The notes below the pieces were generated by a model. That model had not been told where the DNA came from. It saw only the letters and a program-made list of their open reading frames with translations, and did not search any database. From a virus: a stretch of DNA of 64,000 bases. This document shows positions 4,309 through 18,767 of the stretch, piece by piece; position 1 is the first letter of the stretch; each line of letters opens with the position of its first letter. The stretch lies in the IMG/VR virus record IMGVR_UViG_3300040801_005525, positions 1-64,000 of that record, one strand, 5' to 3'. The translations under genes and the position numbers were made by a program.

Positions 4309-4872
4309 ATGGCCCGCTCACGCGATGACCTGAACCCCGCTGCACGACGCGCGCTCAAAGACCACCCTGGCTTGTTCGAGGGCGTGCTCCTCGGAGAGAG
4401 CCTCGACTCGATCGCGCGCCAGTACGACCTCGACGCGAGGATCACCTTGCGCGCCTACTTGCTCTACCGCGAGCAGCTCGTCGAGGAAGAACGCGCGAGG
4501 CTCGCCCTGGCGCTCATGCCCGAGACCGAAGAACAGGCCGCCGAGCGCCTCGCCCTGTTCAAGGGGCAGGGTGTGGCGCCGCAGCGCATGATGGATGAGA
4601 GGCGCCATCGCGAGCTCGAGGCGCGCCTTGGCGATGAAGCAGGTGAGAGACCCTGGGAGAGGTGGATGAGCCGACTCGCGCTCAGCACCATGCTCGAGAT
4701 CACCGCAGGGCAGCTCAATTATCGTTTCGCCAACTGGCCGCACTACCACAAGAGGCCCGCCACCCCCGAGGAGATGGAGGAGCACGGCGATGCGCTCGTG
4801 TGCCGCGTGATAGGGGGAGAGCCTCACAGTGCCAAATCGTACCAGAGACAACCCGTGCCACGACGCACATGA
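4309..4872 (+). CDS. Hypothetical protein, possible HTH DNA-binding
   Basis: Segments ESLDSIARQYDL and SRLALSTMLEITAGQLNYR look HTH-like. Confidence 0.6.
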   Translation: MARSRDDLNPAARRALKDHPGLFEGVLLGESLDSIARQYDLDARITLRAYLLYREQLVEEERARLALALMPETEEQAAERLALFKGQGVAPQRMMDERRHRELEARLGDEAGERPWERWMSRLALSTMLEITAGQLNYRFANWPHYHKRPATPEEMEEHGDALVCRVIGGEPHSAKSYQRQPVPRRT

Positions 4873-4886
4873 CAAGGAGGTCATTC

Positions 4887-5147
4887 ATGCTCACGCTCAC
4901 ACGAAAATCAGGCGAGGTCATCGTCATCACGCTCGAGGACGGGCGCCAGATCGAGGTGGTCGTCAAGGAGATCCGAAGAAACCAGGTCAGGCTCGGCATC
5001 GAAGCGCCACGCTCCTGCATGATCCACAGAGAGGAGCAGCTCGCCGAAGAGCCCGCTCCCCTCGAGCCTGTCCAAGTCGAGGAGCTCGACGAGCAAGAAG
5101 AGCTCCCCTACGAGCCATGCCGCGTGCTCTCGAGGGGGCGCCGATGA
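4887..5147 (+). CDS. csrA: Carbon storage regulator CsrA/RsmA-family RNA-binding protein
   Basis: MLTLTRKSGEVIVI...IEVVVKEIRRNQVRLGIEAPRSCMIHREE is the CsrA signature. AAGGAGG RBS, acidic tail. Confidence 0.92.
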   Translation: MLTLTRKSGEVIVITLEDGRQIEVVVKEIRRNQVRLGIEAPRSCMIHREEQLAEEPAPLEPVQVEELDEQEELPYEPCRVLSRGRR

Positions 5148-5256
5148 GTGCCGAACACTGTGCGCTGCGCGCCGCCAATGAGGTGTTCGAGCCGAGCTGG
5201 ACCGAGCGCCTGATGGCGCTGTGGCGACGCCTTTGTCGCAAGGAGGATGTGCTGTG

Positions 5257-5919
5257 ATGAGCTGTGATCTGACTCGACTCGACGACTATCACCACCTGGT
5301 CGTGCTCCCGGAGCGCCAGGGCGTGGTCATGATGCACTCCTCTCGCGAGCCTGACATTCTGGTGTGCTGCCATGAAGACGACCTTATCAGGGTGACCTCT
5401 CAGGTTGCATCGGGAGGTGTCGTGCTCGAGGGCGAGTCGTCAGACTTCATCGCCCGCATCAAGGCAGCTGGTGAGCTTGGCCGCCACAGCAGGAAGGGCG
5501 AGGCGAGCTACGAGGCTGCCGTCTCATGGAACAAGGCGCCCGCGCTGTGCTGGGACAGCGTGGAGACCGGCGATGACCTGAAGATGATGGCGCGTCAGGC
5601 TCGAGAAGAGCTCTGTCATGAGCGCCGCAAGCCCGAACGCTTGAGAAACCTCGAGAGAGAGGAAGAGCTCAGGATCGACGCGCTCCACTGCCTTCAGCTC
5701 GCCGAGGAGTTCAACAGGAATGAGCCCTGGGACGAGCAGGAGTTCTTCTTCGACCGGGTCAAGCACCTGTATGGCGTCGAGGAGCTGCCCGAGCGCTTTG
5801 CCGAGGTGGGGGTCCATCGCACCGAGCATTGCACCTGGATCCTCAGGGTGCTCCAGCGCACAGCTCACCTGATCAAGCTCCATGAGCACTACCAGCAACG
5901 AGCGACTCGCTATGCATGA
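5257..5919 (+). CDS. Hypothetical protein
   Basis: AAGGAGG upstream, coupled ORF. Confidence 0.7.
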   Translation: MSCDLTRLDDYHHLVVLPERQGVVMMHSSREPDILVCCHEDDLIRVTSQVASGGVVLEGESSDFIARIKAAGELGRHSRKGEASYEAAVSWNKAPALCWDSVETGDDLKMMARQAREELCHERRKPERLRNLEREEELRIDALHCLQLAEEFNRNEPWDEQEFFFDRVKHLYGVEELPERFAEVGVHRTEHCTWILRVLQRTAHLIKLHEHYQQRATRYA

Positions 5920-6124
5920 CACCGCACGACTTGTGCAGATCCGCCTGCGCCATGATGAGCTCGCGCTCACCTTGAAGCGTCTCGCTGACCGATACGGGTG
6001 CCGCCCGAGCAGGACACAGCGCGTCTTCGATGAGGTGTGGAGCTGGGGGCGCCAGGCGCACGAGGACTACACACAGAGCGCGCAGCATGCGCACGAACTT
6101 GGAGACGAAGACACATGGGAATGA
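5912..6124 (+). CDS. Hypothetical protein
   Basis: Overlapping start/stop tiling. Confidence 0.55.
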   Translation: MHDTARLVQIRLRHDELALTLKRLADRYGCRPSRTQRVFDEVWSWGRQAHEDYTQSAQHAHELGDEDTWE

Positions 6125-6330
6125 GGATCATCTACCATGACGTGCCTGGCCCTGAGGCCTTCGAGGAGATGCACGAGGTGCTCGACACCATGCACACGCG
6201 CTACCCCAGGGAGCGCCGCAGGCCTGGATTCGCGGGTGCGGTGGCGTTCGCGGGAGGGACGTGGAAGTGGCTTGCTTACTACACGAAGACGGCGCTGGTG
6301 ATCCGGTGTGAGGGGGAGGTGCAGACGTGA
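6121..6330 (+). CDS. Hypothetical protein
   Basis: ATGA overlap with upstream stop. Confidence 0.6.
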   Translation: MRIIYHDVPGPEAFEEMHEVLDTMHTRYPRERRRPGFAGAVAFAGGTWKWLAYYTKTALVIRCEGEVQT

Positions 6331-6530
6331 GACGCGCGATCCTCCTCTTCGCCCTGTGTGCCCTCCTCGGGACGGCCATGCTCCTCGTGGGCTGGCTCGT
6401 GACCGTGCCGGACCCTTTTGACCCTGCCCAGATGAAGCGTGAGTGGTTCCTGATGGGGGCTGCGATGTGGGGGATGGGGGGATTTCATCTTTTGACTGAA
6501 TGGATTCTGGAGAAAACCCATGTCGAGTGA
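6327..6530 (+). CDS. Small two-TM membrane protein
   Basis: GTGA overlap, GGAGG RBS, two hydrophobic helices. Confidence 0.6.
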   Translation: MRRAILLFALCALLGTAMLLVGWLVTVPDPFDPAQMKREWFLMGAAMWGMGGFHLLTEWILEKTHVE

Positions 6531-7593
6531 ACAACAAAAACGCGTCGCGTCCGCACAATCCATCGCCACACGCCTGACGTTCGTGTCCTATGACGCCATC
6601 GCCGGTGTCATCACGCTGAGCAACCAGGGCTGCCCTGTCTGGGTAGGCGCGCTCCCTGGCGGGATGGTGGGGGTGTGGGGAGACTATGGCACCGCGATGT
6701 TCCGCATGCACAGCTTGACCCACCCTCTCACCGCCCTGAAGTGGGGCGCCACCATGGGAGAGGGCTACCTCGAGGAGAAGTACCGGATCGGGATGGGCGA
6801 GGCCTCTGATGAGTTCCACATCGACACGGCGTTCGAGGAGCTCGAGGAGTTCGTCAGGGATTGCTGCCACGAGGAGATGGAGGAGATGCTCGAGCAGGGC
6901 GGTGAGCTGCCTCGCTACATCCAGCGCATCAACGAGGTGCGTGAAGAGTTTGACTCGGAGACCACGCAAGGCGAGTTCATCAGCAAGCTCGGTGAGCACT
7001 ACGATCCCGAAGCGTTCTATTGCATGGGCGAGGTGACACGTCAGCGCGTGCTCAATGCGGGTGTCATCATGCGCCGTGCCTGGGAGCTTCTGCTCGCGCA
7101 CGAACCCACCGTGCAGCCGTCAGAGAGTGTCGTGCGTTTTGGCATGGCCCACGACGACGGCCACCCGATCGATGGGTGGCACGCCCACGAGCATGTGGAC
7201 GACGCCATCGAGGAGTTCCTCGAGTGGTGTGAGCAGGGCCATGTGGAGGAGGAACGCATCAAGGCGCGCATCTACGTGTGCAGGATGGAGCGCCTGAGTG
7301 AGATCGATTTCGAGCGCGGATGGAAGAGCTCCATCGAAGACCTCGATGCGGATCCTGAATCATCATGGAGCGAGGCTGACGTCACGTTCAACGCACACAC
7401 CAGGGCGCAGCTCGAGGCCCATCTCGAGACGTTCTCGAAGAGCGTCCACACGAACCTGTTCTTTCCCTCTTCGCGCTACATGACCATCGAAGTCGAACGC
7501 CAGGGCGAGGAGGAGTTCAAGGTGCACACGCCGCTCGAGATTCATCAGTGGGAAGTCTGGGAGAACGGGAGGGCGAAGCGTCATGAGTGGTAA
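6520..7593 (+). CDS. Hypothetical acidic protein
   Basis: 357-aa ORF, GGAG RBS, typical codon usage. Confidence 0.8.
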   Translation: MSSEQQKRVASAQSIATRLTFVSYDAIAGVITLSNQGCPVWVGALPGGMVGVWGDYGTAMFRMHSLTHPLTALKWGATMGEGYLEEKYRIGMGEASDEFHIDTAFEELEEFVRDCCHEEMEEMLEQGGELPRYIQRINEVREEFDSETTQGEFISKLGEHYDPEAFYCMGEVTRQRVLNAGVIMRRAWELLLAHEPTVQPSESVVRFGMAHDDGHPIDGWHAHEHVDDAIEEFLEWCEQGHVEEERIKARIYVCRMERLSEIDFERGWKSSIEDLDADPESSWSEADVTFNAHTRAQLEAHLETFSKSVHTNLFFPSSRYMTIEVERQGEEEFKVHTPLEIHQWEVWENGRAKRHEW

Positions 7594-8221
7594 GAAGAAG
7601 ATCGAATACACAGTCGAGAGCGTGATCTCGCAGGAGTTTCTGCCGCTTGGTTTCAAGGTGCTCTCGGAGCTCGTGAAGCCTGGTGGACAGGGCGTGTGCA
7701 GAGGATGGCACACCCTAAGAGGTCCATACACGCCCGAGGTGTACTCAGAGATGGTCGCGCACTTCAAGCGCTTCGGGTGGGAGGTCGTTCATGAGAGCAA
7801 GGGCGAACAGATCGTGGCGCTCATCAGACGTGAGAGTCTGTTCCACATCATGATCGGTCCCGAGGGCGATGGGTTGGCCGCCGAGCTCGAGGTGTATGAC
7901 ACCTGTGCAGGGTTTGCGGCGATGCTCGCCGTCACGCACGGAATCGAACCTGTCTTCTGTGAGCCTCCCAGCACCATCGTTCACATCCAGGACACCCTCG
8001 AGACGCTCGGGGAGCTCGCCGCGCGCTACCCCACAGAGCGTTTCGGACAGCTGCTCCTGAACGCCCTGCGCAGCCACGCTAGGCCGTTCCCGTTCAATGA
8101 CACGGATGCCTACGAGCGCAACATCAAGCTCTTCTCGCGGCTCTTCACGATGGGGGACAGGGAGATGCTCGACGCGATCCAGGGACGCCTCGAGGCACAT
8201 CCTGATGGGGGCGCGTCATGA
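7583..8221 (+). CDS. Hypothetical protein
   Basis: Coupled ORF, GGGAGG upstream. Confidence 0.75.
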   Translation: MSGKKKIEYTVESVISQEFLPLGFKVLSELVKPGGQGVCRGWHTLRGPYTPEVYSEMVAHFKRFGWEVVHESKGEQIVALIRRESLFHIMIGPEGDGLAAELEVYDTCAGFAAMLAVTHGIEPVFCEPPSTIVHIQDTLETLGELAARYPTERFGQLLLNALRSHARPFPFNDTDAYERNIKLFSRLFTMGDREMLDAIQGRLEAHPDGGAS

Positions 8222-9075
8222 ACTTCGACAGCGGACGATATGCCGAGGTGCGCGCGCTGTGCACCACACGTCAAGGGGCGCACTGGTGGGAGGCGGCATG
8301 GATGCACGCGCGACGCATCGAGGAGCCCGAGCAGCGCGCGCTCGCTACAGAGCACGTACAGGGTACGTTCGGTGAACACCTTGCTCAAGTGCAGGAGACA
8401 GGCGCGCCACGTCATCATGGCCAGCTCAGGGCCTATCACTTCACTCCGGAGCACTTTGTACAAGCTCAGATGATCTTCAAGGTGATGACCAGGCACCTGC
8501 GTGACTACGCCTTTTACATGCAGGCCGCAGCGAAAATGGGGCTCGGTGACAAGCTTCTCATCGAGTCGCGTGGAGAGGATACCGCACGCACCACCACACG
8601 CATCAACTCCACGCGTACACTTGACCTCCGGGGGAAAGGCACGCCGCGCTACCATGATCTTCACATCCCGCTCATCTTCAAGGTGCCGAGCGTGGTGTGC
8701 TTTCTGGGCACTGTGAACAACCTGTTCGCCTTCGACCTCCACCCCGACCACATCCATGTCTGGGCCAACCCCTACAGCTACCACACAGCTCATCTCGCTC
8801 AGGAGTTCGAGAGGCGTGAAGGGTTCAAGGTCAGTTGCCTGTCCGAGCATGAAGGTGCTGAATTGCCCATGCCTGCTGTGAAGTACGGGACTGATCTCGA
8901 GCGACACGCCAAGTGGTCCTCGTCCAAGTGCATGCTTACCGAGCGTCAGATCCTCGAGCGTGCATGGCTGCTCCACGAGCGTCATGATCACCTTTGGCCC
9001 GAGGAGCTCGTGAAGCGCGTGCTCGAGATGAGCTACCTCGATGATGAGCGCTTCGAGAAGTGGGTGGGACAATGA
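8218..9075 (+). CDS. Hypothetical protein with N-terminal YAEVRA motif
   Basis: ATGA overlap. Member of the shared N-terminal motif family (see findings). Confidence 0.75.
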   Translation: MNFDSGRYAEVRALCTTRQGAHWWEAAWMHARRIEEPEQRALATEHVQGTFGEHLAQVQETGAPRHHGQLRAYHFTPEHFVQAQMIFKVMTRHLRDYAFYMQAAAKMGLGDKLLIESRGEDTARTTTRINSTRTLDLRGKGTPRYHDLHIPLIFKVPSVVCFLGTVNNLFAFDLHPDHIHVWANPYSYHTAHLAQEFERREGFKVSCLSEHEGAELPMPAVKYGTDLERHAKWSSSKCMLTERQILERAWLLHERHDHLWPEELVKRVLEMSYLDDERFEKWVGQ

Positions 9076-9890
9076 GCTCTCTCGACTACGCACAGCGATG
9101 GGCGGAGCAGGAGTCACGCTGGGTGAGCCACAGGCAGCTCTGTGACACCCGCGTCATCGAGGCGGCGCCCCTCCCCGAGGAGGATGCCAAGGCGTTCATC
9201 ATGACCCACCACTACTCGGGCTCCTACCCTGCCGCGCGCTGCCGTGTGGGGATCTATGAGCGCGGCAAGCTCGTCGGGGTGTGCGTGTTTGGCATCCCCG
9301 CTGGCCCCACAGTCCTCGAGACGTGGACGGGGTTTGGCCAGGACGAGGCCGTGGAGCTCTCCAGGTTCGTGTTGCTCGACTCTGTGGGGTACAACGCCGA
9401 GAGCCATGCGTTGAAGCTCGCGCGCCGCGTCCTGCTCGAGCACCTCCCCGAGCTGCGCGCGCTCGTCTCCTTTTCTGACCCCGTGCCGCGCTACACGCTC
9501 ACAGGCGCGTGCGTGCTCCCTGGCCACCAGGGCACCATCTACCAAGCCACCAATGGCGCCTACCTCGGGCGCACAACCCCACGCACGCTCTACCTCGATG
9601 CCGAGGGTCGCGTCATCTCGGCGCGTGCCATGCAGAAGGTCGCCCAACAACAACGCGGCCATGAGTACGCCGAGCGGCTTATCGTCGAGGCCGGGGCACC
9701 TCCCCGACGCGCTGGCGAGTGCCCGAAGGCGTGGCTCGCGCGCGCGAAGAGGTGCCTGCGCAAGATACGACATACGGGCAACCACGGCTATGTCTGGGGC
9801 TTGAAGCGAGGCGTGAGTTTTGCCTCGAAAGCGGCCTATCCCAAGCAGGTCGATCCGGTCCAACTCGGGCTTGTGGGGGTGTCTCGATGA
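9072..9890 (+). CDS. Mom-family (GNAT-fold) DNA adenine modification protein
   Basis: FIMTHHYSG, LVGVCVFG, ELSRFVLLD, NAES, LVSFSDP and GHQGTIYQATN are hallmark motifs of Mu Mom-like proteins. Confidence 0.85.
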   Translation: MSSLDYAQRWAEQESRWVSHRQLCDTRVIEAAPLPEEDAKAFIMTHHYSGSYPAARCRVGIYERGKLVGVCVFGIPAGPTVLETWTGFGQDEAVELSRFVLLDSVGYNAESHALKLARRVLLEHLPELRALVSFSDPVPRYTLTGACVLPGHQGTIYQATNGAYLGRTTPRTLYLDAEGRVISARAMQKVAQQQRGHEYAERLIVEAGAPPRRAGECPKAWLARAKRCLRKIRHTGNHGYVWGLKRGVSFASKAAYPKQVDPVQLGLVGVSR

Positions 9891-10057
9891 TGACCCAGGA
9901 CACCATATTTTGTCGGCCTCCTTACGACGCACACATGCTCGAGCTTGAAGAGAAGGGGCTCGTGTACTGGCAGCCCATTCATCTCTGGCTCCCCGATGGC
10001 GGGGTGTGGAAATTGACACCACAGGGCGTCGACTTCTTTGCGCAGAGCGTCCCATGA
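9887..10057 (+). CDS. Small hypothetical protein
   Basis: ATGA-coupled at both ends. LELEEKGLV...WKLTPQG resembles a winged-helix C-terminal fragment. Confidence 0.55.
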   Translation: MMTQDTIFCRPPYDAHMLELEEKGLVYWQPIHLWLPDGGVWKLTPQGVDFFAQSVP

Positions 10058-10683
10058 TCGGCTACGCATCACGCACAGGCACCAGGCGCAACCTGGACGC
10101 TTTGAGGGGAGCCGGGTGGCGCCTGCTCATCAGCGCCACGGGCGTGCACAGACACGAGGGATTCAGGTACGGCATCGACAATGGAGCCTGGACTGCATTT
10201 CAGGCGGGCGAGGACTGGGACACGCCCGCTTATCGTGGCCGCTTCGAGGCCCTGCTCATCACACATGGACAGGACGCAGACTGGATCGCAGTGCCAGACA
10301 TTGTGGAGGGTGGGCTCGTCTCGCTCGCCGTGAGTTTGCGGTGGCTCGAGATGCTGCGCGAGGAGTTCCCCGCGCAGACCTTCCTCATCCCCGTGCAAGA
10401 CGGGATGTGTGGTGAGGATCTCGACCCCTACTTGGATGCATGCACAGGCGTCTTCGTCGGGGGTTCGACCTCATGGAAAGAGCAAACCGCGCACATCTGG
10501 GGGGCGGTCTGTCGCAAGCATGACGCATGGCTCCATATCGGGCGTGTCAACTCCAGAAGGCGCATCAAGCTCTGCGCGCTCGCTGGAGCACATTCGTTCG
10601 ATGGCACGAGCGTGAGTCGTTTTGCAAAGACTCTCCCGAGGCTCGACGCCGAGCGGCGTCAGCAATCCTTCGTCTTCAACTAA
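10054..10683 (+). CDS. TGT/DpdA-like (tRNA-guanine transglycosylase fold) protein
   Basis: Ordered motifs IDNGA, VPDIV, IPVQDG, VFVGGS, LHIGRV and SFDGTS parallel the TGT/DpdA barrel motifs DSG, D, PVxQG, GG, HxLG and SxD. Confidence 0.6.
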   Translation: MIGYASRTGTRRNLDALRGAGWRLLISATGVHRHEGFRYGIDNGAWTAFQAGEDWDTPAYRGRFEALLITHGQDADWIAVPDIVEGGLVSLAVSLRWLEMLREEFPAQTFLIPVQDGMCGEDLDPYLDACTGVFVGGSTSWKEQTAHIWGAVCRKHDAWLHIGRVNSRRRIKLCALAGAHSFDGTSVSRFAKTLPRLDAERRQQSFVFN

Positions 10684-10723
10684 GAGAACCACCCACCCCC
10701 TCCCCACAGCACGGATTTTCATC

Positions 10724-12379
10724 ATGGTACAGACGCACAAGAAGAAGACCCCCTACACCTGCCTGACGCTCTTCAGCGGCATCGGGGGAGGGGCGCTCGG
10801 GTTCCAGCAGGCGGGCTATGAACTCGTCGGGGGACTCGACTCCTGGGAAGAGGCGTGCATCGACTACGAGTACCTCACGGGCAGCAAGGCGCACCACGTG
10901 GACCTCGCCACGCTCGAGCCGCACGAGCTGCGCGCCCTGGTCGGCGCGCGCAGGCCTGATGTCCTGTTCACCTCGCCGCCCTGCAAGGCCTTCTCGGGCT
11001 GTCTGCCGCAGGCCAAGTCCAGGACCGCGAAGTACGTGGCGCTCTCGAGCCTCGCCGAGCGTGGCGTGTGGCTCGCGCTCGAGGCCTGGGACACTCCACC
11101 TCCCATCATCCTGATCGAGAACGTGCCTCGTATCCAGTCACGCGGGCGCAACTGGCTCGATGCCATCACGAGCTTGCTCCACGGCTATGGCTACGCGGTG
11201 ACAGAGAGCACGCACGACTGCGGGGAGCTCGGTGGACTCGCGCAGAAGCGCAGGCGCTTTCTGATGATCGCCCGACACGTGCCTCAAGTCGGTGAGTTCG
11301 TCTATGAACCTCCAAAACAGGTGCTGCGGGGGGTGGGGGAGGTCTTCTCTCTGCTCCCTGTCCCTGTCCCAAAACAGGACGTGCAGCCGGGCGGGGTGAT
11401 GCACACGCTCGGGAACCTCTCGGCGATGAACTGGCTTCGGCTCGCCCTCGTGCCAGCTGGCGGGGACTGGCGAGACTTGCCCGAGCGCGTCATGCTCCCT
11501 CACCGCGCCGCGCGCCAGAATGGGTGCTATGGGGTCGTGGGGTGGGAGGATGCGGCGCGCACGGTCGTGGGGCATGCCACGGTGCAGGCGGCGCGCTCGA
11601 ACGTCGCAGACCCGAGGGTGACGTGTGTGAGGCGCCCGGGCAGCGAGGGCGTCACCTCCTGGGATGCCCCCTCGACCACCGTGATCGCACATGGGCGCCA
11701 CTTCAATGGACCCTGGCAGGTGGCAGACCCCCGAATCACGTTCGCGCCGAGGAGCTCGTGCTACGGGGTGCAGGAGGAAGGCGAGCCTGCATGCACGGTC
11801 ATCGGCCACGCCCACCACGACAAGGGACGCTACATCTTCGCCGATCCCCGTCTCACCTGCTCGCCACGCGCCACGGCCTACGGGGTGCAGTCCTTCGCGG
11901 AGAGCTCGGGGTGCATCGTCGGCCATGCATGCCATGACAACGGACGCTACGCGGTGGCTGATGAGCGCGACGTGATGCGCGCCACGCACGTCCTGCGCAC
12001 GCGTGATGGCGAGATCTACCTCGAAGGCGAGCCGCTCGACCTGGAGAGCAGAAAGGCCATGCACCTCGTCATCGCGGCGCGCGATGGCACGTGGCACAGG
12101 CCGATGACGACGCTCGAGCTCGCCGCGTTGCAGAGCTTCCCGATGTGGCATCAGGGCGACTGGCTCAAGCTCCATGGCGAGAACAAGGCTGCATGGCGCC
12201 AGAAGATCGGGAACGCGGTGCCGCCGATGACGGCCAAGGCCATCGCCGAGACGATCGCGCGAAGCCTCGATGCCTCGCTTCACGGTGCGTTTCTGATGGC
12301 CGGTGAGCCCGTGTGGGTGCAGCCTGATGATGTGGCAGAAGAGGTACAGGTCGATGATGGACTTGAACAACGAGGTTGA
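10724..12379 (+). CDS. DNA (cytosine-5)-methyltransferase with repeat-expanded variable region
   Basis: Motif I FSGIGG, IV SPPCKAFS, VI ENV, VIII QKRRR, IX RPMTTLE, X GNAVPP. Confidence 0.92.
   Translation: MVQTHKKKTPYTCLTLFSGIGGGALGFQQAGYELVGGLDSWEEACIDYEYLTGSKAHHVDLATLEPHELRALVGARRPDVLFTSPPCKAFSGCLPQAKSRTAKYVALSSLAERGVWLALEAWDTPPPIILIENVPRIQSRGRNWLDAITSLLHGYGYAVTESTHDCGELGGLAQKRRRFLMIARHVPQVGEFVYEPPKQVLRGVGEVFSLLPVPVPKQDVQPGGVMHTLGNLSAMNWLRLALVPAGGDWRDLPERVMLPHRAARQNGCYGVVGWEDAARTVVGHATVQAARSNVADPRVTCVRRPGSEGVTSWDAPSTTVIAHGRHFNGPWQVADPRITFAPRSSCYGVQEEGEPACTVIGHAHHDKGRYIFADPRLTCSPRATAYGVQSFAESSGCIVGHACHDNGRYAVADERDVMRATHVLRTRDGEIYLEGEPLDLESRKAMHLVIAARDGTWHRPMTTLELAALQSFPMWHQGDWLKLHGENKAAWRQKIGNAVPPMTAKAIAETIARSLDASLHGAFLMAGEPVWVQPDDVAEEVQVDDGLEQRG
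11520..11970 (+). repeat. Four 39-aa (117-bp) internal repeats in the methyltransferase
   Basis: ADPR/ADER codons begin at 11606, 11723, 11840 and 11957 (exact 117-bp period). Each unit is roughly YGV..W....TV.GH......ADPR. Confidence 0.85.
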
Positions 12380-12381
12380 AA

Positions 12382-12975
12382 ATGAAGGACAGGATCAAGG
12401 TAAGCGTCGCGCGTGATTTCAGCAGGTTTCCGGGCGGCCGCTACAGGGCGCAGGGGGAGACGAGCGGCGAGGCGCTGCGTGATGATGTGCTCGTGCCTGC
12501 GCTCAAGGAGGCCGAGGTCGTGGAGGTGTACCTGGGCGATGTGCTCGGGCTTGGCGCGAGCTTCCTCGAGGAGGCGTTTGGCGGGCTCGTGCGACGTGGG
12601 GGATTCACCCAGGCCGAGCTCGATCGCAAGCTCGTGCTCAAGGGAGGTATCGACTCGGATCACGAGGACATCAGGAGTTACATCGCAGACGCAGATGCCA
12701 TCAAAAGTGAGGAGCAGCTGTACGAGCTTGCTTTGCGTGAGGATCCATTCGAGCAGCCTGACCATGTCATGACGCAGAGTGAAGAGGGAAAGACAGGGAT
12801 CTGCTCGATGAGCGGGCTCAAGTGTCCCTATTGCCTCGAGCGCCAGAGTTTCTTCGATGAGCCCATGGAGGGTGACTCGGATGTGGCGCGATACACCTGT
12901 GAATCATGCGAGCGAGAGTTCATGCTCGAGCTGTCATGGGGAGTCACGTGCTACAACACATGGAGGGCAACGTGA
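12382..12975 (+). CDS. STAS-like (DUF4325-type) protein with C-terminal Zn ribbon
   Basis: DFSRFPGGRY..SGEALR..L..ASFLEEAFGGLVR, then CPYC...CESC. Confidence 0.75.
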   Translation: MKDRIKVSVARDFSRFPGGRYRAQGETSGEALRDDVLVPALKEAEVVEVYLGDVLGLGASFLEEAFGGLVRRGGFTQAELDRKLVLKGGIDSDHEDIRSYIADADAIKSEEQLYELALREDPFEQPDHVMTQSEEGKTGICSMSGLKCPYCLERQSFFDEPMEGDSDVARYTCESCEREFMLELSWGVTCYNTWRAT

Positions 12976-13304
12976 CCACCTACACACAACGACGCGCCGA
13001 TGCGGTCTATGCGTGGGCGCTTCGGCACGCCGAGGCACACTCTGCTCTGCTCGAGCGCCTCATCGATGGCGTCTATCGCACCTGTGATGTGGGCTGCGTA
13101 AGCTTCTCACTCGATCAGCGCAAGATCAGTGATGGCACAAACGAGTTCGAGCCGCTGCTCGAGGGGAGTGAGGTGCTGTCGTGGAAGCTCGTGTCCTCCT
13201 CGGATGTGCATGGGCCAGCAGAGCAAGCATGGCAACTCGTGCCAGCACATGCGGATGCGATCTGGTGTGCGCTACAGGACCATCCAAGCAGGAAGGAGAC
13301 GTGA
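12972..13304 (+). CDS. Hypothetical protein
   Basis: GTGA overlap, GGAGG RBS. Confidence 0.6.
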   Translation: MTTYTQRRADAVYAWALRHAEAHSALLERLIDGVYRTCDVGCVSFSLDQRKISDGTNEFEPLLEGSEVLSWKLVSSSDVHGPAEQAWQLVPAHADAIWCALQDHPSRKET

Positions 13305-13711
13305 TGGAGGCATGCATCATCAAGATTCCACCTTCGGCGATCTCCGAGTCGAGGTGCAGGCTTTGCGACAGAAACGACGATTCACTGGAATGGATTGTCG
13401 ATGGTGAGGCCATATGTGATTGGTGTTGCGGTTTCATCATGGGTCCATATTACACGCCAGATCCTGATAAACTTCGCAACGCGATCGAGGAGAAGAGGAA
13501 GGAAGGACATGTCGAAGTGTCCTGGTTGGTCAGGCATGCTCATCCCTTCCACCGTGCTGGTCACAAGTGCGTTGCGAAGTGCTCGCTGTGTCAGCGCCTT
13601 GAGTTTGAGCATGATGAGAGGGCGAAGATGGTGTCGCAGTGGGATGGCTTGATAGCGGTAGACGACGCATTCAAACGTGCGCTCCGCAAGCTCGAAGCAG
13701 GAGGTGCGTGA
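13304..13711 (+). CDS. Cys-rich hypothetical (Zn-binding) protein
   Basis: CRLC, CDWC and CSLC. AAGGAG RBS. Confidence 0.65.
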   Translation: MEACIIKIPPSAISESRCRLCDRNDDSLEWIVDGEAICDWCCGFIMGPYYTPDPDKLRNAIEEKRKEGHVEVSWLVRHAHPFHRAGHKCVAKCSLCQRLEFEHDERAKMVSQWDGLIAVDDAFKRALRKLEAGGA

Positions 13712-14043
13712 TGCCGATCGATGCTGAATGGAAGAGCCTCTACCCGGCAGACTGGGACGCCATCAGCCTCGCCGTGCGCGAGGATGCAGGCTGGGTGTGT
13801 GAGTGGTGCGACGTAGCGCAGGGGGCAAAGATAAAGCGCCCTGGTGACAAGACCACGATCGTCGTGCTCACCGTGGCACACCTCGACCATGACCCGAGGC
13901 ACTGCGACAGGGAGAACCTGCGGGCACTCTGTCAGAAATGCCACATCAACTATGACAAACGCCCCGGACAGCAGCGAAAGCGGGAGATGCTTCGCGCCGA
14001 GGTGCTCCACGGGCAGACGAGCATGTTTGGAGAAGGCGCATGA
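13711..14043 (+). CDS. HNH endonuclease-family protein
   Basis: YPADWDAIS..CEWC..LTVAHLDHDP..ENLRALCQKCH. Confidence 0.85.
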   Translation: MPIDAEWKSLYPADWDAISLAVREDAGWVCEWCDVAQGAKIKRPGDKTTIVVLTVAHLDHDPRHCDRENLRALCQKCHINYDKRPGQQRKREMLRAEVLHGQTSMFGEGA

Positions 14044-14642
14044 TCAAGCGAGTCAAAGAGATGACATTTGATGACGTGTTTCCCGGCATGGTCGGGATCA
14101 GTGAAGATATGACGCTCATGACCGAAGATGGAGTGGGGACACAGCGCGCTCGCCGAGAGGTGGGGATCTATGTGACGTTCGATGAGCGCCAGAGTCTCCC
14201 GGCAGAAGGTCTGGAGGAGCCCGAGATGAGGATGAGCACGCGTCAGACCATCCTGTCGAAGTTCCAGAAGAAGTTCCTTCGCGCCGAGGCGAGCCACATC
14301 GAGCCAGTGCGCCGTGTATGTGAGCCGTTCGATGTGCACATCGAGCAGCTTGATGCGCACATCCTTGGCCATGCCGGACGACGTGGCTGGGCGCTGATAA
14401 GCCCCTCGGCGCTCGCTCTCTATCATGATGAGGAGGACCCGTTCCCCATGCTCATCCTCGAGCATATGGGCAACCGAAGCGCGTGGATCGTGCACTCGAT
14501 TGTGTATGTCGATGAGATGGAGGGTCGGGAGATGACCGCTGATGAGTTGCTCGCCGGTCTCGCTGGCGAGATTCGTGCCGCGCAGGATCGCGCTCGTCAC
14601 GTGCCCCGGCCTGACTTCCGTATCGACTTTGGGTGGTACTGA
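14040..14642 (+). CDS. Hypothetical protein
   Basis: ATGA overlap, typical codon usage. Confidence 0.7.
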   Translation: MIKRVKEMTFDDVFPGMVGISEDMTLMTEDGVGTQRARREVGIYVTFDERQSLPAEGLEEPEMRMSTRQTILSKFQKKFLRAEASHIEPVRRVCEPFDVHIEQLDAHILGHAGRRGWALISPSALALYHDEEDPFPMLILEHMGNRSAWIVHSIVYVDEMEGREMTADELLAGLAGEIRAAQDRARHVPRPDFRIDFGWY

Positions 14643-15055
14643 TGGACCGCATCAAACTCTGCGTGGCGGGCTCACGCCATCTTCACGACCAGGCGCGCGT
14701 CGAGCAGCTCATCGTGAAGGGCTTGCACGAGCTGGGCATCAACCCGAAGCTCGTGCACACGCTCATCAACGGCAAGTGCCCCTATGGCGGCGTGGATGCA
14801 TGCGCTGAAACATGGGCGCGTCGCATGGGCATCCAGATCGAACTCTATCCGGGTCGAGGCGGCAAGGGTGGGTTCCCGGCGAGGAACAAGCAGATGGCGC
14901 AGCGCGCCACACACGCCATCCTCATCTACGCCGCGCATCACGCGTGCCGGGGCACGCAGGACATGCACACGCAATGGATAGGCGTGCACGGCGCCACGGC
15001 CGACAACATCATCACCTACACCATCGATGAAGAGGGCAGCGAGGTCGATCCATGA
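14642..15055 (+). CDS. SLOG/YspA-like (DUF2493-type) protein
   Basis: VAGSR, GxCxxGGVD..AETWA, and G..ARNKQMA. Confidence 0.75.
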   Translation: MDRIKLCVAGSRHLHDQARVEQLIVKGLHELGINPKLVHTLINGKCPYGGVDACAETWARRMGIQIELYPGRGGKGGFPARNKQMAQRATHAILIYAAHHACRGTQDMHTQWIGVHGATADNIITYTIDEEGSEVDP

Positions 15056-15253: not shown

Positions 15254-15826
15254 ATGAACGCAGATAATTCCGATATATGGGGCGAGTTGCGAAGTGCGTG
15301 TGCTCATTCACAGAGCAAAGGCATGCTCATGCTCGCGCGTATCGACCGTATGGAGATCGAGGAAAGCGAGCGCAGACAACTCTATGCTTATGCCAGTGAT
15401 CATGGCGTGGAGAGGCCAGGGCACATCCTGAGTTTCGTGCAATCCTGTAGCGAACGTCGCAATCCCAACTTCGACTTGGAGATGCTCGAGGACCTCCAGG
15501 ACATCATGCGTTGGTGGCACGCCCATCATCGCATGACACATCCCGACTGCCTTGCTGTGCAGGCCTCCCATCAATATGGCGAGCGGCCTGATGGGGAGCG
15601 ATGGCGCTATCACTTCAGGTTGGCCTTGCAGCCCACGTTCCCACGCATGTCAGACCAAAGGCTCAGGACGTATCATGATGACTACCCAACTCCTGATGCA
15701 ATGGATGAGTGGTGGACGCATATCTTCAACGAGTGGGTGGTCGCACCACAGGGACAAATGAGAGGAGGACGCGCCGAGGTGTTCTTCTTCTGTGGCAAGT
15801 TTTTTCGCACGAGGCAGGCAAGATGA
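15254..15826 (+). CDS. Hypothetical protein with N-terminal WGELRS motif
   Basis: GAGGA RBS, motif family member. Confidence 0.7.
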   Translation: MNADNSDIWGELRSACAHSQSKGMLMLARIDRMEIEESERRQLYAYASDHGVERPGHILSFVQSCSERRNPNFDLEMLEDLQDIMRWWHAHHRMTHPDCLAVQASHQYGERPDGERWRYHFRLALQPTFPRMSDQRLRTYHDDYPTPDAMDEWWTHIFNEWVVAPQGQMRGGRAEVFFFCGKFFRTRQAR

Positions 15827-16515
15827 AGCTGATGATCGTGGGCGATGTGCATGCCCAATACAAGCACATGGAGCACGTCATCAGCTTGGCGCTCGAGCAG
15901 CTCGGGCCGGTCGACAGGATCGTGCAGGTGGGGGATTTTGGCTTCTACCCTTCTTATGTCAGGCGCCGCTGGCGCGACTTCGGGGTGCCCATGCACTTCA
16001 TCCGCGGTAACCACGAGGAGCACGATCGCCTCCCCATCGATCAGGTTGCGACAGGCCCGATGGCCACCCCATGCGGTCCCTGGGAGTTCATCGGTGATGG
16101 CTATGTGGATGAGCACGAGGTGCTCCACATCGGCGGCGCGTGGAGCATCGATCGGCAGTACAGGCAGCTCATCGCGGTGCAGAAGCCGGACTTCATCGAC
16201 GTGTGGCGGCCCACAGAGCAGATGAGCGAGGCGACGATCGAGCGGCTGTGGGGAGAGCTCAAAGGCCAGAGCTTTCGCGCGGTCATCACGCACGAAGCGC
16301 CCGAGTTCCTGTTTCCACAGCTCGTGACCACACGCGTCGAGGAGCCAAACCGCACGGCGGCTTTCCTCGAGCGGCTCGCGCGCTCCATCACGACCCCCAC
16401 CTGGTGCTTTGGCCATCACCACAAGGGCCTGCACGTGCACCACGATGGCACGAGCTTCCACTGCATCGACATGCTCGGCGGCACAAGCTCGCCGGTCCAC
16501 CTCCTGGAGATCTGA
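15823..16515 (+). CDS. Calcineurin-like metallophosphoesterase
   Basis: GDVH, GDFG, GNHE, THEAP and GHHH motifs. Confidence 0.9.
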
Positions 16516-16517
16516 CC

Positions 16518-17315
16518 ATGATGTATGACTACCTCGACCTGCTCGGAGATGTGCTCGAGCACGGCACCCCATCAGATGACCGCACAGGGACGGGCACCCG
16601 CTCGATCTTTGGCGCGCAGCTGCGCTTCGACCTCGCGCAGGGCTTCCCGGCCGTGACCACCAAGCGCCTCTACTTCAAGGGCGTGGTGTGCGAGCTGCTC
16701 TGGTTCCTCAAAGGCTCCACGAACTCGCGCGAGCTCGAGCGCCAGGGCGTCAAGATCTGGCGTGAATGGGCGGATGCAAACGGCGAGCTCGGGCCGGTGT
16801 ACGGGGCGCAGTGGCGATCCTGGGCTGGCGCCGATGGCGCGACCCATGACCAGATCGCGCAGGTCATCGCGTCGATCCGCCACAACCCCAACTCGCGCCG
16901 GCACATCGTGAGCGCGTGGAACGTCGCGGAGCTCGACCAGATGGCGCTCCCCCCATGTCACGTGCTCTTCCAGTTCTATGTGAGGGGTGGAAAGCTCTCG
17001 TGCCAGCTCTACCAGAGGAGCGCTGACCTGTTCCTGGGTGTGCCGTTCAACATCGCGAGCTACGTGCTCCTGACGCACATGATCGCGCAGGTCACCGGCC
17101 TCGAGGTGGGGGAGTTCATTCACACCTTTGGTGACGCGCACATCTATGAGAACCACGTCGAGCAGGTGCGTGAACAGCTCTCGCGCAGGCCTTATGATGC
17201 GCCACGTCTTGTACTCGACCCTGGCATCACGCACATTGATCACTTCGCCCTCGAGCACATCCGCCTCGAGGGGTATGAGCACCACCCCGCCATCAAGGCG
17301 CCGATCGCGGTGTGA
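16518..17315 (+). CDS. thyA: Thymidylate synthase
   Basis: [42 protein letters not shown] and DAHIY. Confidence 0.97.
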
Positions 17316-18218: not shown

Positions 18219-18767
18219 ATGCGTCTTTGTGACACCGACATCTTGCACGAGCTCGAACACGGCGATCTCCAAATCACGCCTCTCCCCGAAGACCAGGCAC
18301 GCTGGCTCCAGCCCGCTGGCGTGGACCTGCGCCTCGCTTGTGAGTTCCGGCGCCTGAGCCCCTACCTCGCGTGCATCCGCCCGCACGCGCTGACCGGGGA
18401 GGAGTTCGACGAGCCCTGTGACCTGAACGCCGATGGCGAGTTCAGGCTCGCGCCTGGGGAGTTCGCGTTGGCGCGCACCATGGAGTACGTCAAGATCCCA
18501 CGCGACCTGTCTGCGAACCTCGATGAGCGCTCGACCTACGCACGGTGCGGGGTCTTGATGCACCTCGTGGCCGGGAACATCGAGCCAGGGTTCGAGGGGC
18601 ACATCACGCTCGAACTCGCGAACCTCACCCCCTGCCCCGTCTTCCTGAAGCCAGGCGAGCCGGTGGTCCAGATGACCCTGAACGCCCTGTCCGATGTGCC
18701 AGGGCGTGACTACACCACGAAGGGAGGGCGCTACCAGCGCTCCCATGGCTGCATCGCCCCGCGCTAA
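18219..18767 (+). CDS. dcd: dCTP deaminase
   Basis: QPAGVDLRL, LAPGEFAL..TMEYVKIP, RSTYARCG and IEPGFEGHITLELAN. Confidence 0.9.
   Translation: MRLCDTDILHELEHGDLQITPLPEDQARWLQPAGVDLRLACEFRRLSPYLACIRPHALTGEEFDEPCDLNADGEFRLAPGEFALARTMEYVKIPRDLSANLDERSTYARCGVLMHLVAGNIEPGFEGHITLELANLTPCPVFLKPGEPVVQMTLNALSDVPGRDYTTKGGRYQRSHGCIAPR

Follow-up and report, generated by a model that had tools for sequence, protein, structure and literature searches.

The first 64,000 nucleotides of the IMG/VR virus record IMGVR_UViG_3300040801_005525 (the window; the whole record has 82,837 bp and is estimated to be ~82% complete) carry, at positions 9072-12379, a cluster encoding a Mom-like protein, a small open reading frame (ORF), a TIM barrel with the fold of tRNA-guanine transglycosylase (TGT) that resembles the DNA transglycosylase DpdA (hereafter the TIM protein), and a C5 cytosine DNA methyltransferase. 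We favor, with moderate confidence, the explanation that these enzymes perform three independent post-replicative modifications of adenine, guanine and cytosine, which would serve restriction evasion. An earlier note on this DNA had named the three enzymes and proposed that they either modify A, G and C in parallel against restriction or work one after another towards a new hypermodified base. The three identities are supported, by PF25680 for the Mom-like protein, by PF00145 for the methyltransferase and by the structural fold for the TIM protein, whose TGT/DpdA-like assignment is one that no sequence library makes. Parallel modification is the best-supported of the two proposals, and the sequential pathway finds no support in the co-occurrence of the genes.

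Fold, active site and gene context of the TIM protein

The TIM protein has no match in Pfam or NCBIfam, and PF20314 (DUF6610, DpdA4) in particular gave none at E up to 10. PHROGs places it in family 15826, labelled 'unknown function', and sequence and profile searches of the PDB returned chance matches only (eIF4E, N-acetylneuraminate lyase) and no TGT. A structural search gave the fold of the protein: TGT occupied the top 50 rows by Z (15.4-15.9), with 204 of the 209 residues covered, and the model is a (beta/alpha)8 barrel of the TGT type, confirming the TGT fold of the 10054-10683 gene in the absence of any Pfam or NCBIfam match. Sequence identity to the Z. mobilis and E. coli TGT is 12%. 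Foldseek matches in BFVD include phage proteins named queuine tRNA-ribosyltransferase, and hhalign revealed clear homology between the TIM family and the 208-aa gp40 of the actinophage Aoka of Arthrobacter (98.9% probability, E 1e-17), which is annotated as 'DpdA-like tRNA-guanine transglycosylase'. No sequence similarity to DpdA3 (Cellulophaga phage phiST CGPG_00065) was detectable with hhalign (0.7% over 14 columns), a comparison of limited sensitivity with a single-sequence template, and the similarity to DpdA1 is at the level of motifs with a low hhalign probability, the CAjan DpdA1 profile being of little diversity (only 7 close relatives found). We conclude that the TIM protein represents a Zn-less minimal branch that fits neither of the tested subfamilies DpdA3 and DpdA4, nor clearly DpdA1.

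The best hhalign paths place D42, D82 and D183 of the TIM protein under D89, D143 and D264 of E. coli TGT, and its VQDG under the IIQG and its FVGG under the AVGG of TGT; in the paths against CAjan DpdA1, the motifs LDSGAF and SCDSSS line up with D42 and D183. All three aspartates are invariant or more than 90% conserved across the family and sit at the C-terminal ends of strands 3, 4 and 8 of the barrel; a Gly-Gly loop after strand 6 and an aromatic residue four positions past D42 are also conserved. The corresponding residues of bacterial DpdA (D95, D130 and D256) act as general acid/base, in base recognition and as nucleophile, respectively, and are invariant in TGT and DpdA (PMC10164549). 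The TGT-type barrel and the three catalytic aspartates are common to the TIM protein and to phage and bacterial DpdA (CAjan gp35, a DpdA1; S. Montevideo DpdA, PDB 7UI4), but the TIM protein has 209 residues compared to ~300-400 and lacks the Zn subdomain (CxCxxC...H): it ends 26 residues past D183, without a CxCxxC, and its alignment with TGT halts at TGT residue 278. Compared with bacterial TGT it also lacks insertions in the barrel and the tRNA-holding Zn-binding domain at the C-terminus, and its genomic context consists of phage DNA-modification and replication genes and not of queA or yajC.

Gene context is the strongest functional evidence for the TIM family. We sampled loci centered on the TIM gene from viruses, bacterial genomes and metagenomes (80 each, with some redundancy between the sets), together with 80 Mom-centered viral loci. 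The neighbors in the viral TIM loci were QueC (24 loci), an N6/N4 methyltransferase (21), QueD (14), a C5 methyltransferase (10), QueE (5) and FolE (3), the commonest of them mostly directly adjacent and on the same strand, and at least one preQ0 gene (QueC, QueD, QueE or FolE) was present in 38 of the 80, compared to none with QueC, QueD or QueE and a single FolE in the Mom loci used as control. This linkage to queC, queD, queE and folE is shared with DpdA at the family level, and the other usual neighbors of the TIM gene are DNA methyltransferases and replication genes. Metagenome loci, on contigs averaging 5.6 kb, contained QueC in 14/80 and QueD in 17/80 cases; among the bacterial-genome loci (mostly Paraburkholderia, Caballeronia, Pseudomonas and sphingomonads) QueC was found once in 80.

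When whole virus records with a TIM gene were considered, QueC was present in 16/50, but in only 5 of the 26 near-complete ones. Since 21 of these 26 lack QueC, a singleton TIM gene is normal, and leaning on the host queuosine pathway is its usual state, also in the present record, where no QueC, QueD, radical-SAM, FolE or TGT gene was found in the 82.8 kb, nor QueF or any other gene for an amine-bearing deazaguanine. All phages with DNA known to contain 7-deazaguanines code for a DpdA-type protein (PMC10516641), and singleton DpdAs without pathway genes have been described for some phages (PMC6884629). On the basis of fold, active site and gene context, we consider it likely that the TIM gene works like DpdA.

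The family is large and its conservation good, with 1,605 matches among clusters at 90% identity and 3,007 clusters at 50% identity, and its members come from proteobacterial, acidobacterial and myxobacterial prophages, from plasmids and from marine and soil phages; its proteobacterial branch is annotated 'hypothetical'. The nearest relative (P0002, 83% identity) lies on a 13,963-bp ENA contig, and the best bacterial relatives are just 59-61% identical and scattered over several phyla. Fused forms occur, namely a TIM-QueC protein of 433 aa (P0183), a 912-aa protein that joins the barrel to a PD-(D/E)XK nuclease domain (P0123) and a 499-aa marine-virus protein (BFVD A0A0F7L9Z1) of which the barrel makes up one half. 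Copies from Paraburkholderia, Caballeronia and Burkholderia (L169-L199, L190) share a conserved N-terminal extension of ~60-80 aa that is not in the phage forms, and one bacterial copy is on a Burkholderia contaminans plasmid. Gene 101 of Erythrobacter phage ZS04 (L081:5001-5642), a 46%-identical homologue, is labelled 'DarB-like antirestriction protein'; its counterpart in the related phage vB_EliS_R6L is 'hypothetical', and the DarB label looks like a mis-annotation.

The Mom-like protein and the C5 methyltransferase

The Mom-like protein belongs to the same Pfam family as Mom of phage Mu (PF25680; 99 bits, cut-off 27.1, E 3.8e-28) and matches phrog_1384 with E 7e-30. A profile built from 35 Mom homologues retrieved the Mu Mom structure (PDB 8BV8) with E 2.5e-12, and a Foldseek search with the AlphaFold (AF2) model, of pLDDT 92, returned 8BV8_A first (E 4.4e-10, target-normalised TM 0.72), the next GNAT protein having E 4e-5, five orders of magnitude behind. 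Mu Mom moves glycine from Gly-tRNA(Gly) onto N6 of adenine in double-stranded DNA (dsDNA); R111 and S124 are essential, and H58, Y59, D149, R151 and Y159 are named alongside them (2026 study, PMC13219725). Six of these positions are kept, with H47, Y48, R98, S111, D136 and Y157 of the phage protein aligning with Mu H58, Y59, R111, S124, D149 and Y159, respectively, and all six are invariant or nearly so among the 35 homologues. We take the Mom-like protein to be an active momylase, by comparison with Mu Mom.

Several features distinguish it from Mu Mom. The phage protein has 272 aa compared to 231-241 in Mu, with a longer C-terminal part, and the dimer residue W48 of Mu is not conserved. In the region of the helix-turn-helix-like insertion (Mu 175-209) the alignment stops at Mu residue 193; helices span residues 184-191, 197-206 and 218-227 of the model. 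The phage gene lies mid-way in a long operon and not at the genome end, and no gene for a com-like zinc-finger regulator overlaps its start. No Com-like regulator was found at all; the small ORF sits 3' of Mom and, as read from the sequence, has only one Cys, which rules out a zinc finger of the Com type. The window has no tRNA genes, including a phage-encoded tRNA-Gly that could feed Mom, so the donor would be host-supplied.

The methyltransferase matches PF00145 with 95.7 bits (cut-off 22, E 4.9e-27) and phrog_116 with E 1e-50, and carries FSGIGG (residue 17), PPCKAFS (85), ENV (132), QKRRR (174) and GNAVPP (496), that is, motifs I, IV, VI, VIII and X in canonical order, as do the phage Dcm-type C5 methyltransferases (phrog_116; Pseudomonas phage phiCTX orf41 type). 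Parts of the gene show ~70% DNA identity to Pseudomonas phage methyltransferases. It differs from Dcm-type enzymes in a long variable region, because of which it remains below the TIGR00675 cut-off (74.9 vs 100.65). This region of ~270 aa holds four tandem, diverged repeats of 39 aa (residues ~263-420; window positions 11500-12000), which end in ADPR or ADER at residues 295, 334, 373 and 412 and each resemble the core target-recognition motif; no tandem repeats were found in it at the DNA level. Multispecific C5 methyltransferases of Bacillus phages have tandem target-recognition domains (TRDs), and the tandem TRD-like repeats of the present enzyme suggest, from their sequence, several target specificities.

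Independent enzymes or a shared pathway

The earlier note had described the Mom-like gene, the small ORF and the TIM gene as coupled by ATGA overlaps with the C5 gene 40 bp downstream, an arrangement confirmed directly in the sequence: the small-ORF ATG (9887-9889) overlaps the Mom-like stop (TGA 9888-9890), the TIM-gene ATG (10054-10056) overlaps the small-ORF stop (TGA 10055-10057), and the TIM-gene stop (TAA 10681-10683) is separated by a gap (10684-10723) from the methyltransferase ATG at 10724. The gene upstream of Mom (8218-9075) is coupled just like the members of the trio, the Mom-like ATG (9072-9074, read from the sequence) overlapping its TGA (9073-9075), and a script counted 10 start/stop overlaps of 4 bp between 5 and 22 kb, plus the one at 10054. 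Such overlaps are thus generic in this operon, and the coupling is not specific evidence for a functional trio. An alternative gene call starts the 56-aa ORF at Met17, which would abolish its ATGA overlap with Mom.

A check of co-occurrence in related phages had been set beforehand, and its outcome goes against the sequential proposal. A Mom hidden Markov model had no match in the flanks fetched around the 240 TIM loci, and in the 50 whole virus records with a TIM gene Mom exceeded the Pfam cut-off in one, 30 kb away, with a sub-threshold match in one further record. By this check the sequential reading fails and the parallel one stands. In the reciprocal sample, a DpdA-like gene lies beside Mom in 1 of the 80 Mom loci (L120), in the order C5 methyltransferase (4633-5937), Mom (5934-6731) and an actinophage-type DpdA-like gene (6734-7609) that is cut by the contig end. 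The Mom ORF of L120 begins mid-domain, and HHYS, an N-terminal motif, lies at its C-terminus, as if the gene had been rearranged or duplicated in tandem. C5 methyltransferases occur near Mom in 9/80 loci and near the TIM gene in 10/80, and methyltransferases in general near Mom in about one locus in 6 and near the TIM gene in about one in 3, frequencies expected of independent modification genes that cluster in one region of the phage genome; one Mom locus (L084) has a homologue of the present methyltransferase, 42% identical, directly 3' of Mom. Neither the small ORF nor the 285-aa gene upstream of Mom has a homologue in the Mom or TIM loci. With no conserved pairing of Mom and DpdA, this pattern fits independently moving modification genes and not a conserved multi-enzyme pathway.

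From these results we infer the chemistry, the donor base, the target motifs and the restriction-escape purpose as follows. The cluster would be an anti-restriction 'modification island' in which three mechanistically unlinked enzymes each alter a different base of dsDNA after replication. By analogy with Mu Mom, the Mom-like enzyme would attach to N6 of adenine a glycine drawn from host Gly-tRNA(Gly), and the product would rearrange to N6-carbamoylmethyl-adenine. The TIM barrel, acting as a DpdA, would use D183 to attack C1' of deoxyguanosine, with D42 as the general acid while guanine departs, and a 7-deazaguanine base would then fill the vacated site; D82, Q115 and G136-G137 would form the base pocket. 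The inserted base would most likely be preQ0 from the host queuosine pathway, as the phage record lacks folE and queCDE. Finally, the C5 methyltransferase would make 5-methylcytosine, and its four tandem TRD-like repeats may let it act on several target sequences.

The tight packing of Mom, the small ORF and the TIM gene, together with the L120 neighborhood, in which a C5 methyltransferase precedes Mom and a DpdA-like gene directly follows it, could instead indicate a joint pathway, in which the DpdA-like protein inserts a 7-deazaguanine and the Mom-like protein, as an aminoacyl-tRNA-dependent transferase, decorates it to a new hypermodified guanine, for example on an exocyclic amine with an amino acid from a charged tRNA; the 56-aa protein would perhaps be an adaptor and L120 a second instance. 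Mom chemistry does acylate an exocyclic amine (PMC13219725). We regard this pathway as extremely improbable, since the two genes are neighbors in 0/240 TIM loci and 1/80 Mom loci, the single whole record with Mom above the cut-off has it 30 kb distant, the small ORF has no homologue anywhere searched, the ATGA overlaps are generic, genes for an amine-bearing deazaguanine (QueF or other) are absent from the record, and the active-site residues of an adenine modifier are all kept in the Mom-like protein. Adjacency is also the sole hint that Mom and the barrel might bind one another.

It is unlikely, but deserves more weight, that the TIM barrel is linked to 7-deazaguanine without being a DNA transglycosylase, and that it acts on tRNA, in the salvage or hydrolysis of a deazapurine nucleoside or nucleotide, or as a base-excising glycosylase, or else that it inserts a base other than preQ0. 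With neither the Zn subdomain nor insertions outside the barrel, the protein lacks most of the surface by which TGT and DpdA bind nucleic acids; it has no similarity to DpdA3 and no Pfam match to TGT or DUF6610, and many family members adjoin one pathway gene only, QueC alone or QueD alone. Yet the three transglycosylase aspartates, whose roles are established in bacterial DpdA (PMC10164549), are conserved along with the Gly-Gly loop and the aromatic residue past D42, the phages known to have 7-deazaguanines in DNA all encode a DpdA-type protein (PMC10516641), and the usual neighbors are DNA methyltransferases and replication genes. The enzymes could also be the modification halves of prophage restriction-modification or defence modules, and not stand-alone counter-defence, so that a linked nuclease would recognize the DNA of lysogen and phage as 'self'; many TIM-bearing records count as proviruses, and bacterial chromosomes often carry the gene. 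HNH genes such as the one 1.3 kb downstream (13639-14043), which could supply that nuclease, are commonly homing or packaging nucleases in phages. Bacterial DpdA does operate inside a restriction-modification system (PMC10164549), but no restriction endonuclease and no homologue of DpdB or DpdC-K was seen beside the three genes, and orphan methyltransferases, Mom and phage DpdA are established as stand-alone anti-restriction functions (PMC6884629, PMC13219725), so that we consider a defence module very unlikely.

Independent modification by the three enzymes is therefore the reading that we retain, and the following observations weigh against it. Mu Mom R151 has no clean counterpart in the Mom-like protein, where the D136 motif is followed by an insertion of 11 residues; R140, which is invariant and four residues past D136, lies near the position of Mu R151. 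PF01702 (TGT) has no match at E up to 10 in the TIM protein or in the whole record, the TIM family, short and of putative function, is devoid of the Zn-binding C-terminal subdomain found in TGT, and hhalign against the single E. coli TGT or CAjan DpdA1 sequences gave probabilities of only 2-7%, so the residue mapping rests on the agreement of fold and motifs. The packing of Mom, small ORF and TIM gene and the independent L120 neighborhood leave some room for interplay. Lastly, preQ0 is a presumed donor base, in a record ~82% complete.

The surrounding operon and significance

On the minus strand the record encodes terminase and tail genes, and on the plus strand a long operon of co-directional, tightly packed genes extends from ~2 to 21.7 kb and includes the cluster (Table 1).

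Table 1. Genes and other features of the cluster and of the operon around it (positions in the window)
Feature	Position	Strand	Basis or remark
Gene without assigned function, 285 aa	8218-9075	+	same operon as Mom-like gene
Mom-like GNAT-fold DNA adenine modifier, 272 aa	9072-9890	+	PF25680, phrog_1384
Small ORF, 56 aa (40 aa if Met17 start = 9935)	9887-10057	+	coding-like GC1/2/3
Minimal TGT-fold, DpdA-like putative DNA guanine / 7-deazaguanine transglycosylase, 209 aa	10054-10683	+	fold, D42/D82/D183
C-rich leader, 40 bp	10684-10723	+	motif CCCCACAGCAC at 10702-10712
C5 cytosine DNA methyltransferase, 551 aa	10724-12379	+	PF00145, phrog_116
DUF4325/STAS-like protein	12382-12975		same operon; 2 bp after methyltransferase stop
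HNH endonuclease	13639-14043		same operon; 1.3 kb downstream of methyltransferase
Weak YspA/SLOG-like protein	14633-15055		same operon; below Pfam cut-off
Metallophosphoesterase	15709-16515		same operon
Canonical ThyA	~16515-17315		same operon; NF002497, 440 bits vs cut-off 327
Canonical dCTP deaminase	18219-18767		same operon

The gene upstream of Mom matches no Pfam, PHROG or NCBIfam family, lacks homologues in the other loci around Mom or the TIM gene and gave nothing usable in an Atlas search; it is in the same operon, yet nothing ties it to the modification functions. The 56-aa ORF has a coding-like GC content at the three codon positions (GC1/2/3 = 0.61/0.39/0.70) but belongs to no family and has no homologue in any fetched locus, its Atlas matches, all scoring <0.9, being leads only. 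The leader of the methyltransferase gene contains CCCCACAGCAC, which has 11 matches with at most one mismatch in the window compared to 2.3 expected, a number that 0 of 100 shuffles reach. Exact copies are at 10702, 30673, 36552 and 45851, all four in C-rich leaders and on the coding strand, and 7 further sites have one mismatch; the motif may be a promoter or translation signal of the phage. No sigma-70-like promoter was found in 5500-14500, and terminator-like matches in the same interval are weak, with none inside the 10684-10723 gap.

Downstream of the cluster, the DUF4325/STAS-like protein has a weak C-terminal match to a CxxC zinc-binding family (NF047912) below the cut-off. Thymine hypermodification through a thymidylate-synthase homologue was ruled out, as ThyA and the dCTP deaminase are both canonical, and the metabolic genes downstream are ordinary nucleotide supply with no sign of such a modification.

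If all three enzymes are active, this would be a phage with modified A, G and C simultaneously, and we found no report in the literature of that combination in one phage. Mom together with a DpdA-like gene is itself rare (1-2/50 records), and the novelty lies in this rare enzyme combination and in a large, uncharacterised, minimal DpdA-like family. The 209-aa barrel family is not covered by Pfam, and its fold, active site and gene linkage point to a minimal DpdA devoid of the Zn subdomain. Among transglycosylase scaffolds of this type it would be the smallest, and it would be a cheap marker for 7-deazaguanine DNA and permit a direct test of the roles that the Zn domain and the barrel insertions have in substrate choice.

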